19,628 bases of DNA, taken from a virus (lineage: Duplodnaviria > Heunggongvirae > Uroviricota > Caudoviricetes). Shown here piece after piece: positions 6,600-19,628 of this stretch (within the stretch, counting starts at the first letter, position 1; every line of letters begins with the position of its first letter). The DNA lies in the IMG/VR virus record IMGVR_UViG_2711768070_000008, positions 1 to 19,628 of that record, one strand, 5' to 3'. A model generated the notes under the pieces. That model saw only the letters and a program-made list of their open reading frames with translations, did no database searches and was not told the origin of the DNA. Made by a program: the position numbers and the translations under genes.

Positions 6600-7025
6600 T
6601 TAGTGCATCACCACAGCATTCCCTGCCGGGCCGCCGCGATTCATCTGGTCATACAAAACAACCGCTGACGCAACAAAATCGTCGACATCCTTCACCAGCC
6701 GATCCCGCCGTTCGACAATCTCCCGGTAATACTCAGAGCTGTGACTGCGCATACGGGCTACCAGCAGAGGCGGCATTGCCTTTTCGATCGCCGGTAACAG
6801 AGCCTGAATTTTTTCAACAGCATCAGGGGTGTCTTTATCCAGCCAACGGAAAATTTTCTGTGTATTACGGGCCAGGGCTTCCGGATGGCTGTCGTCGTAC
6901 AGTTCAGGGAACGTCATCCCCAGTTCGAAATAAGTCCGGGCTATTTCAGCTGCAGGAACTTTCTCACCATCAGGGTATGCCCAGGCATTCATCGCCATGC
7001 GGATGTGCTCATGTTTGATTTTCAT
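6600..7025 (-). CDS. YdaT-like protein (Rac-type, CII-position regulator/toxin family)
   Basis: 141 aa; N-terminus MKIKHEHI... as recalled for Rac YdaT; overlaps the cro-like gene by 17 nt. Confidence 0.7.
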   Translation of the reverse strand: MKIKHEHIRMAMNAWAYPDGEKVPAAEIARTYFELGMTFPELYDDSHPEALARNTQKIFRWLDKDTPDAVEKIQALLPAIEKAMPPLLVARMRSHSSEYYREIVERRDRLVKDVDDFVASAVVLYDQMNRGGPAGNAVVMH

Positions 7026-7332
7026 GAATCATTTGCCTCTTGATGCTTCGGGTATGATCGTTTTCGTCATTTGGTTGCTTCATCGACATATTCTGCGAAT
7101 AACATGACGAGCGTCGTAAGTATGTCCAATCAACATCAGGACGAAGTTCTTCACACAGGACACCACCTTTTGTTGCTCGTTCAATCGCAGGACATCTCTC
7201 AGCAGGCAACTGACGTACACCTTTGATCCATTGATTTACGCTTGGAGGAGATACACCTAAAAGCCTAGCCATTGCTGATTGCCCACCGACAACAGCACAA
7301 GCTCGTTTGAATGAATAGTTATCTTTTTTCAT
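7009..7332 (-). CDS. Cro-like HTH regulator (YdaS-like)
   Basis: Start at ATG 7332 (GGAG RBS) rather than track start 7353; HTH region ...QSAMARLLGVSPPSVNQWIKG...; divergent from the repressor gene. Confidence 0.75.
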   Translation of the reverse strand: MKKDNYSFKRACAVVGGQSAMARLLGVSPPSVNQWIKGVRQLPAERCPAIERATKGGVLCEELRPDVDWTYLRRSSCYSQNMSMKQPNDENDHTRSIKRQMIHENQT

Positions 7333-7359
7333 CGAATGAACTCCAAAAAACACGCAACA

Positions 7360-7427
7360 ATATTAGGCTTAGCCTAATACAATTATCAATAGGCTATGCC
7401 TAACACATCGAGAGTAGGGATTGCCTA
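7360..7427. promoter_or_regulatory. Right operator/promoter region: three TAGGC-N3-GCCTA operators overlapping a leftward promoter
   Basis: Operators at 7364-7376, 7390-7402 and 7415-7427 (25-26 bp centre to centre); minus-strand -35 TTGATA (7389..7384) and -10 TAATAT (7365..7360) with an 18-bp spacer. Confidence 0.6.
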
Positions 7428-7456
7428 ACGCGATGCGCATAGGAGACTATTAAGCA

Positions 7457-7933
7457 ATGCTTAGTGGTAAAGACTTAGGCCGAGCGATAGAGCAGGCCAT
7501 TAACAAAAAAATTGCATCAGGAGCCGTCAAATCAAAGGCGGAAATCGCACGTCATTTCAAAGTCCAACCACCATCAATCCATGACTGGATTAAGAAAGGT
7601 TCGATAAGTAAAGACAAACTTCCAGAACTATGGCGTTTCTTTTCTGATGTGGTTGGTCCAGAGCATTGGGGGCTTAACGAATACCCCATACCAACCCCAT
7701 CCACTTCAGATACAAAAAGTGAACTTTTAGACATAAACAGCCTTTATCAAGCCGCCTCTGATGAAAAAAGAGCAATTGTGGCTTTCCTCTTATCTGGAAA
7801 TGCTACGGAGCCTAGTTGGGTTGATCATGACGTTCGCGCCTACATTGCCGCAATGGAAATGAAGGTAGCTAACTATCTGAAAAATCAAGAATCAAAACGG
7901 AAAAGCCAGAACATCACCAAGACAGGAACTTAA
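7457..7933 (+). CDS. Prophage repressor (CI-equivalent; RacR-like)
   Basis: 158 aa; N-terminal HTH (SKAEIARHFKVQPPSIHDWIK); AGGAG RBS; flanked on both sides by operator clusters. Confidence 0.8.
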   Translation: MLSGKDLGRAIEQAINKKIASGAVKSKAEIARHFKVQPPSIHDWIKKGSISKDKLPELWRFFSDVVGPEHWGLNEYPIPTPSTSDTKSELLDINSLYQAASDEKRAIVAFLLSGNATEPSWVDHDVRAYIAAMEMKVANYLKNQESKRKSQNITKTGT

Positions 7934-8028
7934 ACTTATATGGTCCGACGGGAAATTCCTAGTTCCCGTTAGTTAACTCCTACTACCTCTCCCACAAACC
8001 ATCACCTATTAGGTCGCGCCCAAATTAT

Positions 8029-8070
8029 TAGGCATAGCCTATTGACAAGTAATTAGGCATTTCCTATAGT
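8029..8070 (+). promoter_or_regulatory. Left operator/promoter (PL-equivalent): sigma70 promoter overlapped by operators
   Basis: TTGACA (8042-8047), 17-bp spacer, TATAGT (8065-8070); operators TAGGCATAGCCTA (8029-8041) and TAGGCATTTCCTA (8054-8066). Confidence 0.65.
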
Positions 8071-8251
8071 TTTCCCATACCAACCCATCCCGTCCCACAC
8101 AATACAGGGCAATACCTCGAGTTACCAGGCAGTGGTCAGGGGTTAAGTAGCCAGCCCGAGGCGTAAGAACATGACGGCAGGGTTCAACTTTAATAACTAT
8201 GCAGCAGGTTTTTGTTCCGCTACCCCGGCGTTAAGGGGAAATGAGGTCAGC

Positions 8252-9094: not shown

Positions 9095-9147
9095 TTTCTG
9101 GTGACGTTTGGCGGTATCAGTTTTACTCCGTGACTGCTCTGCCGCCC
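9095..9147 (+). ncRNA. dicF: DicF small RNA (ftsZ-targeting), 53 nt, with terminator U-tail to 9152
   Basis: Sequence TTTCTGGTGACGTTTGGCGGTATCAGTTTTACTCCGTGACTGCTCTGCCGCCC matches the DicF sequence as recalled; GGCGG...GCCGCC stem then TTTTT; directly upstream of dicB. Confidence 0.7.
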
Positions 9148-12524: not shown

Positions 12525-13549
12525 TGGGAAGACGAAGGAAAAATCCTGAACACGAAAAACTACCTCCAAATGTATACCCAAATAAATATAGTTATGTATG
12601 GAAACCAACATCCAGAGAATCTGTCACACTAACCGCCATCAAGGATGGTTTAGCTGCTTTATGGAAAAAGTATGAGGAAACTGTAAATAATCGCGATCGT
12701 GCAATGACATTCGGTCGCTTGTGGGAAAAATTCCTCGCCAGCGCCTATTACAGTGACCTCAGTCCAAGAACACAAAAAGATTATCTGCAACATCAAAAAA
12801 AGTTGCTTGCCGTATTCGGTAAGGTGCCGGCAGATTCCATAAAACCAGAACACATCCGTCGATACATGGACAAGAGAGGGGAACAGAGTAAAACGCAAGC
12901 CAACCATGAAAAAAGCAGTATGTCCCGCGTTTACAGTTGGGGGTATGAGCGAGGGTACGTGAAGGCTAACCCATGTGCAGGTGTAAGTAAATTCAAGGCC
13001 AAAAACCGCGAACGATATGTAACCGACAAAGAATACCAGGCAGTATTAAGCGTTGCACCTCTTCCTGTTTTTATCGCAATGGAAATTGCCTATCTGTGTG
13101 CAGCGAGGGTTTCCGATGTGTTATCGCTGAAATGGGAGCAGATTGGAAACGACGGAATCTTTATCCAGCAAGGGAAAACAGGAAAAAAACAGATAAAAGC
13201 ATGGAGTCCACGATTACAGGCGGCGATCGAAAAAGCAAAACAGTTACCAACATCCGCCTATGTAATCAGTAATCAATACGGCAACCGATATATGTACAAA
13301 GGCTTTAACGAAATGTGGGTAGAAGCAAGAAATCGCGCAGGCAAAATTTCAGGTATTTTAACCGACTTCACCTTTCATGATCTGAAGGCGAAAGGAATTT
13401 CAGACTATGAAGGAAGCAGTCGGGATAAGCAACTTTTCTCTGGTCACAAAACCGAGGGGCAAGTGCTAATCTATGACAGGAAGGTTAAAGTTTCACCGAC
13501 ACTTGATGTCCCGTTACCTGAAAATATTCCAAGAAAATATTCCAAGTAA
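12524..13549 (+). CDS. int: Lambda-family tyrosine integrase
   Basis: 341 aa; C-terminal catalytic region with R...HDLKAKG...Y (LIYDRK); ends 52 bp from the tRNA-Ser 3' end. Confidence 0.9.
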   Translation: MGRRRKNPEHEKLPPNVYPNKYSYVWKPTSRESVTLTAIKDGLAALWKKYEETVNNRDRAMTFGRLWEKFLASAYYSDLSPRTQKDYLQHQKKLLAVFGKVPADSIKPEHIRRYMDKRGEQSKTQANHEKSSMSRVYSWGYERGYVKANPCAGVSKFKAKNRERYVTDKEYQAVLSVAPLPVFIAMEIAYLCAARVSDVLSLKWEQIGNDGIFIQQGKTGKKQIKAWSPRLQAAIEKAKQLPTSAYVISNQYGNRYMYKGFNEMWVEARNRAGKISGILTDFTFHDLKAKGISDYEGSSRDKQLFSGHKTEGQVLIYDRKVKVSPTLDVPLPENIPRKYSK

Positions 13550-13601: not shown

Positions 13602-13691
13602 TGGCGGAGAGAGGGGGATTTGAACCCCCGGTGGAGTTGCCCCCACTCCGGTTTTCGAGACCGGTCCGTTCAGCCGCTCCGGCATCTCTCC
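13602..13691 (-). tRNA. serU: tRNA-Ser (anticodon CGA)
   Basis: 90 nt; GGAGAGA acceptor stem, long variable arm, GGTTCAAATCC T-loop, CCA end; anticodon loop CU-CGA-AA. Confidence 0.9.
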
Positions 13692-14682: not shown

Positions 14683-14758
14683 TCCTCTGTAGTTCAGTCG
14701 GTAGAACGGCGGACTGTTAATCCGTATGTCACTGGTTCGAGTCCAGTCAGAGGAGCCA
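14683..14758 (+). tRNA. asnT: tRNA-Asn (anticodon GTT)
   Basis: 76 nt canonical E. coli tRNA-Asn sequence; the asnT name comes only from its position next to mtfA. Confidence 0.95.
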
Positions 14759-14765
14759 TTTTCAA

Positions 14766-14795
14766 GAAAGCAGACGTTCACTAACGTCTGCTTTC
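14766..14795 (+). terminator. Stem-loop downstream of tRNA-Asn
   Basis: GAAAGCAGACGTT-CACT-AACGTCTGCTTTC perfect 13-bp stem; following tract is only moderately T-rich. Confidence 0.55.
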
Positions 14796-14938
14796 TGCAT
14801 TTCTATCAATTGGTTATCCCCTCTCAGTCGTTCACCCTCGTTCACTAAAAACCACTCGAAGCCATATCATTTTGATGGTAAAAATGCTGGTAATGCTGGT
14901 TCGATTTCCCTTTTACCAACAAATGAGGGGGTGTTTTC

Positions 14939-16213
14939 ATGTCACTGACTGATATTAAAGCAAAAAATGCAAAACCCCTTGAGAAGGAATACAAGCTTAC
15001 TGATGGCTTTGGTATGTTCCTTCGTGTTACCCCTAAAGGTTCGAAATACTGGCAAATGGCTTACCGCTTCGAAGGGAAACAAAAACTCTTCTCTATTGGT
15101 GTTTACCCTGCAGTTTCTCTTTCTGACGCAAGACAACGCCGTGACGAGGCCAGAAGGCTTCTGGCTCAGGGTATTGACCCTAATGCAAAGAAACAGGCAG
15201 AGGTTAAAGAGCTTAAAGCCAAACGTGATAATACACGCTCCTTCAGAACAGTAGCCAAAGCGTGGTTCTCCACGAAAACAAAATGGTCTGATGATTATGG
15301 CGATGCCGTATGGAAGCGCCTTGAAACTTATGTCTTCCCGGTAATCGGTGACAAAGATGTTGCCGAACTGGATACGGGTGATCTGCTGGTTCCGGTGAAA
15401 AAAGTTGAGGCTCTTGGTTATCTTGAAGTTGCCATGCGCATTCAACAATACATTACGGCAATCCTGCGTCATGCCGTCCAGCAAAAGCTGATACGCCATA
15501 ACCCAGCCTATGATATGGAAGGTGCAGTTCAGAAACCACAAACTGAACACCGCCCTGCACTTGAGCTGGAAGAAATACCCCAGCTACTGAACAAAATTGC
15601 CGAATACAAAGGCCGCAGGTTAACCATACTGGCAATACAGCTCAATCTGATGATTTTCATTCGTTCCAGTGAGCTTCGTTTCGCTCGCTGGTCTGAAATT
15701 GATTTCAAAAGTAAGTTATGGGTGATACCCGAACAGCGTGAAGCAATTGAAAACGTCAAACATTCGACTCGTGGTGCCAAAATGAAGCGTAAGCACTTCG
15801 TTCCCCTTTGTAAGCAAGCTATGAGGATACTAAAAGAGATCCGACAACTGACTTATGAAGAAGGCCATGATGATGGATTAATCTTCACTGGCTGTTATGA
15901 CTCGTTTAAACCCATGAGTGAAAACACCATCAACAAAGCCCTGCGTAATATGGGATATAACACGAAGCAGGACATCTGTGGACACGGTTTCCGCACTCTG
16001 GCCTGTAGTGCCTTAATTGAGTCCGGGCTATGGTCAGAAGACGCTGTAGAGCTTCAAATGAGCCATAAGGAAAGCAACAGCGTCCGTGCTGCTTATACCC
16101 ACAAGGCTAAACACCTTGATCAACGCCGTCTGATGCTCCAATGGTGGGCTGACTACCTTGATGCAAGCAGAAACGGTATGGTAAGGCCGTTTGAGTTTGC
16201 TTCAAATAAATAA
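14939..16213 (+). CDS. int: P4-type tyrosine integrase
   Basis: 424 aa; N-terminus MSLTDIKAKNAKP...YKLTDGFGMFLRVTPKGSKYW typical of P4-like integrases; C-terminal HGFRTL...Y catalytic motifs; GAGGGGG RBS. Confidence 0.9.
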   Translation: MSLTDIKAKNAKPLEKEYKLTDGFGMFLRVTPKGSKYWQMAYRFEGKQKLFSIGVYPAVSLSDARQRRDEARRLLAQGIDPNAKKQAEVKELKAKRDNTRSFRTVAKAWFSTKTKWSDDYGDAVWKRLETYVFPVIGDKDVAELDTGDLLVPVKKVEALGYLEVAMRIQQYITAILRHAVQQKLIRHNPAYDMEGAVQKPQTEHRPALELEEIPQLLNKIAEYKGRRLTILAIQLNLMIFIRSSELRFARWSEIDFKSKLWVIPEQREAIENVKHSTRGAKMKRKHFVPLCKQAMRILKEIRQLTYEEGHDDGLIFTGCYDSFKPMSENTINKALRNMGYNTKQDICGHGFRTLACSALIESGLWSEDAVELQMSHKESNSVRAAYTHKAKHLDQRRLMLQWWADYLDASRNGMVRPFEFASNK

Positions 16214-16216
16214 AGG

Positions 16217-16238
16217 GAAAGGCCGTTCGCGGCCTTTC
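16217..16238. terminator. Hairpin between convergent int and orphan gene (possible bidirectional terminator)
   Basis: GAAAGGCCG-TTCG-CGGCCTTTC. Confidence 0.5.
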
Positions 16239-16259
16239 AACTTCATGCTTAATTACACT

Positions 16260-17651
16260 CTATGCTGAATATGATACTGAATCTTTCTCTATCACTAAAC
16301 CAGCGATTTTTTCCAGCATTATTTCCCAGAGTGCGTATTTTCTTTTGTGCTCAATAAACAGGGATTTTAAATACTCTTCTGTAGAAGGGATTTTTTCAGT
16401 CCATGTAATATCTTTACTGTAATCAATGCTTTTTTTCATATCAGATGCTGCATAGGTGTAGTATTTACTCTGAGAACGACTGATACTGTCCTCTGCCAGA
16501 ACTCTACGGAGCAGAGTTGCAGAACATGCATAACCATGCCTGTAAAGTTCACTCGATAAAGTACGAACAAAAGAACCGCGTAATAAAGACATCATCTCTG
16601 CGATTTCATTTTCACTCGCATTCATGACTTCAGAATCAAGTTTTCCATAACTATCCGTCCCGGACAAGAAAAGAATAACAAACGGAAAGCCTTTGTTCTT
16701 TGCTATGCCAGAGAACAAATCCAGTGAGTCATTATTTTTCTCTACCCGATTATAGATATTATAAAAAATAACATCACACCTGTTCTTAAATCCGTCTATA
16801 CAAATTGTTTTTGCCTGCTGAATCTCGCCTTCTTCAATCAACGCCAGAGCCAACACCTCAGTCCATTTATCACGAAGCCCTGCCTGATCAACTGATTTAT
16901 CTTCTTTGATTTTATTGAGAACCTGAATGGCTTCCTCAGTGCACAGTTCATCAACCAGCAACTCAGCAAACTTAATGATGTATTCTGGCTGGTTCAGTTT
17001 TCTTTTCTCAAAGCATTGCCTGATGAAATCAACATCCCTGATATACAGACTTAACTCAACAGCATAATTAACATTACCTGTCTTAAGAAGACTTTCCCTT
17101 AAAGCACGAATAACATTGTATCCAAGCTCTTTTTTATACTTATCAAAAATATCAAAGTTAAAATATACATCACCTTTAAGCACGGAAAGTATTTTATCCG
17201 CTATAACATCAATGCTTTTATCTTTTTGTAGGGACAGGGATTTTAACCATGTTTCGACAGCACCATTATAATAGTCCATCCATGATCCATCTGATGTATC
17301 AGCAATTTCGCTGATTTTATCAAATGAGAGCAGTAAATCATGGCAAAACGCCTCGGTTTTTTCAGGCAGCGTTGATACCGTCTTTTCAAGTGGAAATATG
17401 ACATTCCTGTATAGCCCCTCAAAAAAAACCGCTGCTTCATAATAATCATAAAAGCGTTTTGTTTTAATTACCCTTTTGTATTCAGCCTCAGCCTTTTTCA
17501 GTGATTCTTCTGGAGTTAACAGATATTTATTAATAATAAAGGATTTTGCCTGACCATTATTCTCTGCAATATCACAAATTATTTGCATGAGTTGATCGGC
17601 AGGCATTTCCTTGAGTAAAGCAAGTTGTTTCTTGTTCAGTTTAGCCATCAT
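16260..17651 (-). CDS. Orphan protein of unknown function (~463 aa; 484 aa from the farthest ATG), AT-rich, predicted largely helical
   Basis: Long ORF with no recognisable catalytic motifs; start placed at ATG 17651 or 17648 (AGGA upstream) rather than 17714 (no RBS); divergent from the mod gene. Confidence 0.7.
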   Translation of the reverse strand: MMAKLNKKQLALLKEMPADQLMQIICDIAENNGQAKSFIINKYLLTPEESLKKAEAEYKRVIKTKRFYDYYEAAVFFEGLYRNVIFPLEKTVSTLPEKTEAFCHDLLLSFDKISEIADTSDGSWMDYYNGAVETWLKSLSLQKDKSIDVIADKILSVLKGDVYFNFDIFDKYKKELGYNVIRALRESLLKTGNVNYAVELSLYIRDVDFIRQCFEKRKLNQPEYIIKFAELLVDELCTEEAIQVLNKIKEDKSVDQAGLRDKWTEVLALALIEEGEIQQAKTICIDGFKNRCDVIFYNIYNRVEKNNDSLDLFSGIAKNKGFPFVILFLSGTDSYGKLDSEVMNASENEIAEMMSLLRGSFVRTLSSELYRHGYACSATLLRRVLAEDSISRSQSKYYTYAASDMKKSIDYSKDITWTEKIPSTEEYLKSLFIEHKRKYALWEIMLEKIAGLVIEKDSVSYSA

Positions 17652-17842
17652 CACATCCTGATAATGTTTGGTAGACGCATAAAAGCTAATTGTACTAATA
17701 CAAGGACAGGACATTCAATAAATGCATTAACATAATGATTTAAAAAGAAATCTGTAGCACACTGTTCATTGATGAAATGCACTATTTACCGTAAAATATC
17801 CCCCATCACACAGTAACCTGATACAGATACGTGGAATGGTCA

Positions 17843-19573
17843 ATGAACAAACTTTCGCCTGAAATGCCCGAACTGCAATCAATGAATATCACTGCCGATA
17901 ACATCACCAAACTTAAATCATTGTTTCCTGAAGCCTTTAATGAAAACGGCATTGATTTTGACGTTTTAAAACAGCTTTTGGGTGAAAATGTAGACGAAAA
18001 AGAAGAACGCTATGGCCTGAACTGGCATGGTAAGCGTCAGGCTCGTCAGCTTGCTCTTACCCCTTCCCGTGGCACCTTACGCCCATGTAAAGATGAAAGC
18101 GTTGATTGGGATAACACCAAGAACCTCATGATCGAGGGTGATAACCTTGAAGTATTGAAGCTTCTTCAAAAAAGTTATGCCGGAAAAGTTAAGCTTATTT
18201 ATATTGATCCACCTTACAATACCGGTAAAGATTTTGTTTATTCTGATAACTTCCAAGATAACATGAAAAATTATCTTGAAATGACAGGACAAACAGAAGA
18301 TGGGGTACGAATCACCACAAACGCAGAAACCAGTGGACGTTACCATACTGATTGGTTAAATATGATTTACCCACGTTTAAAACTTGCAAGAAACTTGTTG
18401 AAAGAAGATGGAGTTATTTTCATTTCCATTGATGATGCTGAAGTTGATAATTTAAAAAAAGTTTGCTCGGAAATCTTTGGTGAAGAGAACTTTGTTGCTA
18501 ATATTGTATGGCAAAAAAAATACTCACCACAAAATGATGCCACATATTTTAGTGATATGCATGATCATATTTTAGTATATGCAAAGCAACGGAAGAATTC
18601 AAAAAATGATTCAAATGGTTGGAACATAGATTTTCTACCAAGATCAGACGAACAAAATGCAGCGTATAAAAACCCCGACAATGACCCTCGTGGAGTTTGG
18701 AAGTCTGTAGATTTATCAGTCAAAACTTATTCCAAGGCTAATGATTACTCAATTACCACACCATCAGGACGTATTGTAACTCCTCCCGCCAGTAGATGCT
18801 GGCAGGTTTCTGAAAAACGTTTTGCAGAATTGTGTAAAGAAAATAAAATTTGGTTTGGAGAAAATGGTAATAATGTTCCATCAATCAAAAGATTCCTGAC
18901 TGAGGTCCAAGATGGTGTTGTTCCTACAACATGGTGGTCATATAAAGAATGTGGCCATAATCAAGAGGCCAAACAGGAACTAAAAAAACTCATGGAGGGA
19001 GAATCTGTATTCTTTGACACGCCTAAACCATTGAGATTATTAGATAGAATATTACATTTAGCAACAACCAATGATAAAAATAGTATTATCCTAGATTTTT
19101 TCGCTGGGTCAGGTACCACGGCTCACGCAACTTTGAATAAAAATATTGCTGACAGTGGTTCACGCCGATATATTGCTGTGCAATTACCTGAAAAAATAGA
19201 TGATGAAAAATACCATACAATATCAGAACTAACCAAAGAACGCCTCCGCCGCGCGGGTAAAAAGGTTCGTGAAGACAATCCAGAGTGGAAAGGTGACGTT
19301 GGTTTTCGTGTTTTCAAACTCGATACATCTAATATCCGTCCGTGGGAAGCCACAGCAGAAACCCTTTCAGAACAGATTGATGCCTATGTAAGCCCAATCC
19401 TTGAAGGCCGTAGTGAAGAAGATTTGCTCACAGAGTTAATGCTAAAGCGTGGCATTGACTTGAGTGTTAACATTGAAACCCGTCAGTTTGATGGATTAAC
19501 CGTTTCTTGTGTTGACGGTGGCAAATTGTTTACCTGCTTTGCTAAGGAAGGTGCGAACAAGTTCCTGATATGA
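17843..19573 (+). CDS. mod: Type III restriction-modification methyltransferase (Mod), N6-adenine, beta class
   Basis: Motif IV IYIDPPYNTGKDF precedes motif I DFFAGSGTTAHA; ATG 17843 preferred over the GTG at 17831. Confidence 0.85.
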   Translation: MNKLSPEMPELQSMNITADNITKLKSLFPEAFNENGIDFDVLKQLLGENVDEKEERYGLNWHGKRQARQLALTPSRGTLRPCKDESVDWDNTKNLMIEGDNLEVLKLLQKSYAGKVKLIYIDPPYNTGKDFVYSDNFQDNMKNYLEMTGQTEDGVRITTNAETSGRYHTDWLNMIYPRLKLARNLLKEDGVIFISIDDAEVDNLKKVCSEIFGEENFVANIVWQKKYSPQNDATYFSDMHDHILVYAKQRKNSKNDSNGWNIDFLPRSDEQNAAYKNPDNDPRGVWKSVDLSVKTYSKANDYSITTPSGRIVTPPASRCWQVSEKRFAELCKENKIWFGENGNNVPSIKRFLTEVQDGVVPTTWWSYKECGHNQEAKQELKKLMEGESVFFDTPKPLRLLDRILHLATTNDKNSIILDFFAGSGTTAHATLNKNIADSGSRRYIAVQLPEKIDDEKYHTISELTKERLRRAGKKVREDNPEWKGDVGFRVFKLDTSNIRPWEATAETLSEQIDAYVSPILEGRSEEDLLTELMLKRGIDLSVNIETRQFDGLTVSCVDGGKLFTCFAKEGANKFLI

Positions 19574-19603
19574 GATCATCATATTCATCCGGAGCGCATC
19601 CCA

Positions 19604-19628
19604 GAGGGACATCATGAGCCATCAACTC
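19604..19628 (+). CDS. Possible start of Type III restriction subunit (Res), first 8 codons only
   Basis: ATG 30 nt after the mod stop with GAGGGA RBS; expected mod-res order; far too short to confirm. Confidence 0.3.

Follow-up and report, generated by a model that had tools for sequence, protein, structure and literature searches.

The racR–ydaS region of the Rac prophage in Escherichia coli K-12 is the closest described system. Three repeats between the two genes were reported by Krishnamurthi et al. in 2017 (PMC5700373). In EMSA, K-12 RacR forms three complexes with this region and a single complex with a 49-bp fragment that carries one repeat; the operator is enriched in ChIP-qPCR, a gfp fusion to the ydaS promoter is repressed in a RacR-dependent manner, and racR is essential because RacR represses ydaST (PMC5700373). 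A DNase I footprint published in 2022 shows protection of the ydaST-promoter region at the lowest RacR level and of the racR-proximal region at higher levels. It gives the consensus (T/A)TAGGC-n3-GCCTA(T/A), with operators O1–O3 conserved in several Enterobacteriaceae and an O3 that "overlaps the initiating ATG" (PMC9638921). The same work reports the mapped PydaST promoter (TTGACA-18-TAATAT) and three racR promoters, one of them leaderless, and finds that K-12 YdaS does not repress racR, unlike the lambda arrangement (PMC9638921). An isolated half-site is also mentioned for K-12 (PMC5700373, PMC9638921), and a 2023 study in NAR describes four inverted repeats plus a half-site and an octameric RacR (PMC11014345). 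Silencing racR or antagonising RacR derepresses ydaG, ydaF, kilR, racC and recET, as RNA-seq shows (partly PMC11014345), and the RacR regulon, including ydaFG, is described as not characterised (PMC11014345).

The PaaR2–YdaS–YdaT region of prophage CP-933P (PMC8630535) is a second described relative. It resembles the locus presented here in its gene layout with YdaS and YdaT and in its four equally spaced OR palindromes; further parallels are a repressor gene transcribed without a leader and a repressor that forms octamers, as known for K-12 Rac, and a PL/OL analogue, as predicted below. Its repressor, however, belongs to another family, and its palindromes are 18 bp long with the consensus GTTTAGTAA, whereas the half-site here is TTAGGC. 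CP-933P therefore belongs to a different immunity group.

The window, meaning the whole 19,628-nt stretch of DNA that was analysed, holds, from position 1 to about 14760, one arm of a lambdoid prophage; the arm ends at an integrase next to tRNA-Ser and mtfA. The immunity locus of the window is the Rac-type region (racR–OR–ydaS) of a lambdoid prophage, because the genes on either side of the operator encode a RacR orthologue and a YdaS/Cro-like protein. By megablast, the immunity region is present at no less than 99% identity in 303 E. coli records, where it is annotated racR, and positions 7300–8200 are 89% identical to K-12 Rac. A first-pass annotation of the same DNA had placed an operator between divergent repressor and cro-like genes, and this gene arrangement stands. 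The prophage repressor gene racR, the CI analogue, occupies 7457–7933 on the plus strand and encodes 158 aa; the divergent ydaS-like gene, the Cro analogue, occupies 7009–7332 on the minus strand with its ATG at 7332. The ydaT-like gene, the CII analogue, lies at 6600–7025 on the minus strand and is co-transcribed with ydaS.

The three proteins differ in how closely they match K-12. RacR is 92% identical to K-12 RacR over 158 aa and scores 246.8 bits against the NCBIfam RacR equivalog NF049929 (cut-off 200). The YdaS-like protein is 85% identical to K-12 YdaS and carries the domains PF15943 YdaS_toxin (3.8e-30), PF14549 P22_Cro (1e-8) and HTH_3. The YdaT-like protein matches PF06254 YdaT_toxin (8.2e-11), shares only 31% identity with YdaT of K-12 Rac and is CP-933P-like instead. 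This drop in identity places a mosaic boundary at the 3' end of ydaS. The Rac-type immunity module thus sits inside a mosaic prophage. K-12 Rac itself sits in ttcA, whereas the prophage here adjoins tRNA-Ser/mtfA.

Other features of the window concern the prophage and its edges. A sok antisense RNA at 2549–2723 on the minus strand (RF01794, 114 bits) marks a hok/sok (hokD-type) toxin–antitoxin locus within the prophage. The integrase end is flanked by tRNA-Ser(cga) at 13602–13691 on the minus strand, and tRNA-Asn(gtt) lies at 14683–14758 on the plus strand. Beyond it, about 4.9 kb (14760–19628) is unmatched in the best prophage-bearing genomes and begins with another integrase-sized ORF (14939–16213), which suggests a separate island.

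The fold of RacR has to be approached through structure prediction. No family was matched in a Pfam search with the 158-aa protein, and a PDB sequence search returned nothing meaningful, so the assignment rests on a model and weak Foldseek matches. The AlphaFold model (mean pLDDT 81) predicts a five-helix N-domain (helices 4–21, 27–33, 38–47, 52–61 and 68–71), a disordered linker (80–91) and a helical C-domain. The top Foldseek matches in the PDB are all XRE/lambda-repressor-like HTH proteins (lambda repressor, C-proteins, HipB and ClgR), with rmsd of 2–3.6 Å over 63–77 residues and E values of 0.06–0.6, none of them at E ≤ 0.001. Such matches are supportive, not conclusive, of a predicted lambda-repressor-like HTH in the N-domain, and the prediction agrees with published modelling (PMC11014345). 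Three N-domain residues differ from K-12 RacR, including H42Y within the predicted recognition helix.

Operator sites were located by a consensus scan with TAGGCNNNGCCTA over the whole window, and region 6700–7900 was also read directly. Site 1 (7364–7376, TAGGCTTAGCCTA) and site 2 (7390–7402, TAGGCTATGCCTA) are perfect and lie at −93 and −67 from the racR ATG. Site 3 (7415–7427, TAGGGATTGCCTA), at −42, has one mismatch (TAGGG); site 4 (7451–7463, TAAGCAATGCTTA), at about −6, has two mismatches and has its centre at the A of the racR start codon. Sites 1–3 follow one another at 26 and 25 bp, start to start. The three palindromes 25–26 bp apart named in the first-pass annotation are therefore real in position and spacing, except that the third is imperfect. 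The word "tripartite" undercounts the region: it leaves out the fourth palindrome over the racR ATG, a half-site at 7475–7480 and two more sites within 8029–8066. That half-site is a TTAGGC on the plus strand inside racR, and a single hexamer at such a frequency is expected by chance, as holds for the TTAGGC hexamers at 2633 and 19021. The complement of site 4 contains the C.Csp231I C-box CTAAG-N5-CTTAA.

The palindromes are far more numerous than chance predicts. With at most one mismatch, the window holds five matches where 0.22 are expected; this count is not attained in any of 200 dinucleotide-preserving shuffles. When two mismatches are allowed, seven of eight matches fall within two control regions of about 100 bp and 60 bp; the one left over, at 12735, corresponds to chance frequency.

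The sites are interwoven with promoter elements. A consensus promoter scan gives a single leftward promoter, the PydaST-like PR analogue. It spans 7360–7389 on the minus strand, with TTGATA at 7389–7384, an 18-nt spacer and TAATAT at 7365–7360 (9 of 12 consensus matches). By itself this match does not exceed chance (0.8 expected in the consensus scan), and the promoter scan at OR was used only jointly with homology to the mapped K-12 promoter: TTGATA-18-TAATAT aligns base for base with K-12 PydaST, TTGACA-18-TAATAT, which was mapped by primer extension. Site 1 lies inside the spacer and overlaps the −10 by 2 bp, and site 2 abuts the −35, which agrees with the earlier proposal that the sites overlap a leftward −35/−10. 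The overlap here is a consensus match at the homologous position; the transcription starts were mapped in K-12. Site 3 overlaps the putative −35 (TTGCCT, 7421–7426) of a leaderless racR promoter. By homology only, GAGACT at 7443–7448 on the plus strand, 8 nt upstream of the ATG, takes the position of the K-12 PracR3 −10 (GAGAAT). Since the −35 reads TTGATA instead of TTGACA and the −10 homologue GAGACT instead of GAGAAT, promoter strengths may differ from K-12. These promoter differences and those in the N-domain could alter strengths while leaving the system the same.

Comparison with K-12 Rac shows where the DNA has been held constant. Both loci have a 123-bp intergenic region, four palindromes and a half-site at the same positions, the same PydaST geometry and the downstream pair. 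The sites at −93, −67, −42 and about −6 align column for column with K-12, and their half-sites are identical; site 4 matches K-12 over its whole length. The DNA divergence of about 11% is confined to spacers and linkers; both the linkers and the 3-bp spacers (TTA vs GAC at site 1; TAT vs TGT) have diverged. In the aligned non-coding sequence, 54 half-site positions match and 1 does not; among all other positions, 240 match and 65 do not (Fisher p = 1.1e-4). Conserved half-sites amid diverged spacers and linkers form the pattern that would be expected if a protein contacts the half-sites.

The published operator can be laid over this map. From the text of PMC9638921 we infer that O1, O2 and O3 correspond to 7390–7402, 7415–7427 and 7451–7463. 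RacR binding and ydaST repression at the present sequence would follow by transfer from the K-12 orthologue. The three-site finding of the first-pass annotation is correct and correctly interpreted; it is also already known, because the EMSA, footprint and reporter experiments that it proposed have been published for the K-12 orthologue. The likeness to lambda OR on which it remarked is likewise stated in the K-12 Rac papers. It had further predicted a distinct immunity specificity from the different half-site. Compared with known immunity groups, as it had suggested, the half-site is indeed unlike that of lambda and unlike the PaaR2/CP-933P repeats; the specificity is distinct from lambda but not new, being the Rac immunity type.

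The operator layout extends well beyond E. coli. Through the repressor protein alone, 29 related loci were retrieved from Escherichia, Mixta, Morganella, Proteus, Klebsiella, Erwinia, Achromobacter, Burkholderia, Nitrosomonas, Bordetella, Comamonas, Sphaerotilus and other genera. In most of them, sites occur at −66, −41 and −6 relative to the repressor ATG. In most related loci the −41 site, counterpart of site 3, reads TAGGAATTGCCTA, and the −6 site, counterpart of site 4, reads TTAGGCAATGCTTA (L008–L035). Escherichia-type operators possess one extra unit (−93, −67, −42 and about −6). This unit is site 1 (7364–7376), whose counterpart is found only in such four-site operators; site 2 equals the conserved −66 site elsewhere. 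The operator layout is the same in the temperate phages vB_EcoS-683R6 and KpF5. In a set of 107 sites taken from non-redundant loci, the core A, G, G and C, T vary little or not at all, and the 3-bp spacer is unconstrained. In nearly all relatives, the −6 site has the repressor start codon within its spacer, and codon 2 (CTT) contributes to the right half-site, a placement that fits the invariant Met-Leu N-terminus and a leaderless transcript.

Sites and DNA-binding domain vary together. Loci that keep the recognition helix PPS(I/V)xDW have canonical sites; the two loci with PQAIRGW or AQAIQGW have none. The latter are the Pusillimonas loci L030 and L031, which have a GTG start and intergenic regions without canonical TAGGC-N3-GCCTA, and their homologues are candidates for derived specificity. 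The RacR N-domain (residues 1–75) precedes C-terminal parts that vary widely in length, so that the whole proteins measure 138–366 aa. In some relatives (P0101, P0102, P0114; L014 2501–3601) it is joined to an S24 LexA-like peptidase domain, and the TAGGC-N3-GCCTA operators are kept. A fixed N-domain with varied C-terminal parts implies that DNA-binding domain and operator may travel as a module, and it points to C-terminal domain swapping around a fixed domain–operator pair.

With high confidence, the best explanation of these observations is that the region is the OR analogue of a lambdoid prophage with a Rac-type immunity module, whose repeats are bound by RacR. Other DNA-binding proteins of the locus deserve consideration. 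Cro and CI share operators in lambdoid switches, RacR competes with YdaS for operators (PMC11014345), and YdaS and PaaR2 footprints overlap in CP-933P (PMC8630535); the palindromes might accordingly be primarily operators of the Cro-like YdaS, with RacR acting elsewhere or indirectly. Such a reading is very improbable. Purified RacR alone, with YdaS absent, shifts and footprints the K-12 sites (PMC5700373, PMC9638921), across loci the sites vary with the RacR N-domain, and the proximal one is built into the repressor start codon. YdaS likely shares the sites, which adds to RacR binding and does not replace it. An equally slim chance attaches to the repeats being binding sites of the CII-like YdaT, which also binds the intergenic region: K-12 YdaT shifts DNA from between the two genes and protects the ydaS promoter in footprinting, but according to the authors the segment that it protects contains no palindrome (PMC11879457). 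The known YdaT box is TTGATT-N6-AATCAA (PMC9986795). Moreover, YdaT is only 31% identical to its K-12 counterpart and the half-sites are invariant, so the sites do not covary with YdaT, which speaks against this assignment.

The same data bear on whether the repeats do anything at all. Many Rac-like prophages are cryptic, and close relatives of the present prophage have a frameshifted integrase, so the palindromes could in principle be chance or relic repeats, functionless, in a decayed prophage. Of the alternatives this has the lowest probability, close to negligible. It is opposed by the shuffles, which never reach the observed count, by half-sites kept against diverged linkers, by sites that persist in isolated phages and in bacteria ranging from Enterobacterales to Betaproteobacteria, and by the essential role of racR in K-12; for the K-12 orthologue, published binding and reporter data have already refuted the relic reading.

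Under the preferred explanation, an OR analogue bound by RacR, the switch would work in a graded manner. RacR dimers would bind the 13-bp TAGGC-N3-GCCTA palindromes through the N-terminal lambda-repressor-like HTH. The perfect sites at 7364–7376 and 7390–7402 would be the high-affinity sites and would occlude the strong leftward ydaS–ydaT promoter; the Cro- and CII-like genes would be shut off and lysogeny maintained. The degenerate sites at 7415–7427 (over the −35) and 7451–7463 (over the leaderless transcript start) would fill at higher RacR, giving negative autoregulation of racR. The same repressor would silence an early leftward-type operon (dicBF, exonuclease, int) via a second module at 8029–8070. 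The anatomy, orthology, conservation and covariation in this account come from the present analysis. Binding, footprint order, promoters, repression and the octamer have been demonstrated in the literature for the K-12 orthologue, and their transfer to a 92%-identical repressor is a prediction from that identity.

The second module lies past the racR gene. Its distal OL-like site (8029–8041, TAGGCATAGCCTA) is perfect, sits directly upstream of a −35 and is identical in K-12; its proximal site (8054–8066, TAGGCATTTCCTA) has one mismatch and reaches from the promoter spacer into the −10. The PL-like promoter between and over them (8042–8070, plus strand) reads TTGACA-17-TATAGT, has 11 of 12 consensus matches where 0.4 such promoters are expected, and points away from racR. 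The two sites are 25 bp apart, about 570 bp past the racR start and about 100 bp past the racR stop. Their layout, in which a site is followed by the −35, 6 nt and a site overlapping the −10, is the mirror image of the ydaS-promoter arrangement. The module is identical in K-12, where it lies upstream of ydaG (homologous K-12 sequence TTAGGCATAGCCTATTGACA). A downstream pair occurs in 15 of the 29 related loci, 24–25 bp apart around TTGACA and usually with TAATAT as the −10; relative to the repressor start it lies at +550 to +2536 among these 15 loci, the distance varying by inserted content. The phages vB_EcoS-683R6 and KpF5 also have the OL-like module. On this sequence evidence, 8029–8070 is probably an OL/PL analogue, and the downstream pair would act as a second RacR operator.

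The surroundings of the module show further features. The gap between repressor and OL-like pair holds variable cargo in related loci, such as an ankyrin-repeat protein, an HSDR_N nuclease-like protein and ORFs of unknown function (L019 2990–4120; L035 3649–4803; L014 3628–4815); in lambda, rexAB occupies the same position. A third OL site at 8010–8022 (TAGGTCGCGCCCA) was considered and rejected. It has two mismatches, lies 19 bp from the next site, has three mismatches in K-12 and is not conserved in other genera. The block 8000–8022 (CCATCACCTATTAGGT), which overlaps this weak match, is identical in K-12 despite diverged surroundings and is not conserved in other genera.

The operon behind the PL-like promoter is Qin-like, with the order DUF1391-ydfB-ydfC-DicF-dicB-ydfD-exonuclease-int; the DicF sRNA lies at 9096–9147 on the plus strand (Rfam RF00039, 76.7 bits). 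K-12 Rac has ydaG-ydaF-kilR where the window carries this dicBF operon. In the DicA–DicC/dicBp system of Qin (PMC10448788), a ydfA/B/C-DicF-dicB-ydfD operon likewise stands under operators at a PL-type promoter, but the operator and promoter before the operon are DicA-type in Qin and RacR-type here. With a Qin-like operon behind a RacR-type promoter, the division inhibitors DicB and DicF would be under the control of RacR, not DicA.

No description of an OL-type RacR operator was found in the text of the searchable Rac/RacR literature, and a search of the KilS/Rac literature also yielded nothing on such an operator. A broader, joint reading combines an undescribed RacR control at OL, an OR–OL loop held by an octamer, and an ancient portable module of N-domain and operator. 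As a combination it is tentative, with the odds somewhat against it. In its loop part, octameric RacR would bridge OL and OR over about 0.65 kb, as lambda CI does; in its module part, the C-domain would have been swapped between RacR-type oligomerisation domains and S24 self-cleaving domains.

Lambda is the natural yardstick for such an arrangement. Lambda operators are 17 bp long with their own consensus half-site, and OR and OL lie 2.4 kb apart. Both systems have divergent repressor and cro genes and, with the promoters here placed by homology to K-12, multiple dyad operators over PR and over the repressor's own promoter. A leaderless repressor mRNA, an octameric repressor and a second operator on a PL-type promoter past the repressor gene are shared as well, the last as predicted here from sequence. 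A lambda-repressor-like HTH fold is also predicted for the RacR N-domain, with the weak Foldseek support described above. In contrast to lambda, the core here is 13 bp (5-N3-5) with an unrelated half-site, four OR and two OL sites replace three and three, and the OR–OL distance is about 0.65 kb. RacR here also lacks the S24 self-cleavage domain (no Pfam match), and, among homologues with this N-domain, only some have S24. The different half-site, the 13-bp core, the lack of S24 and the four plus two sites put the locus outside the lambda immunity group, though it would work like lambda OR/OL.

The prophage switch that was recognised from raw sequence is the RacR–YdaS switch, characterised since 2017, and its three sites themselves add nothing new. 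What may be new is the probable OL/PL module and the breadth of conservation. The pair of site and N-domain is conserved well past the Enterobacteriaceae surveyed in the literature, from Enterobacterales to Betaproteobacteria. An operator placed over the repressor start codon means that operator and coding sequence constrain each other, as reflected in the Met-Leu N-terminus. The published derepression of genes downstream of racR could be indirect, via YdaS/YdaT or excision. An OL/PL under RacR control would account for the derepression reported for ydaG, kilR and recET.
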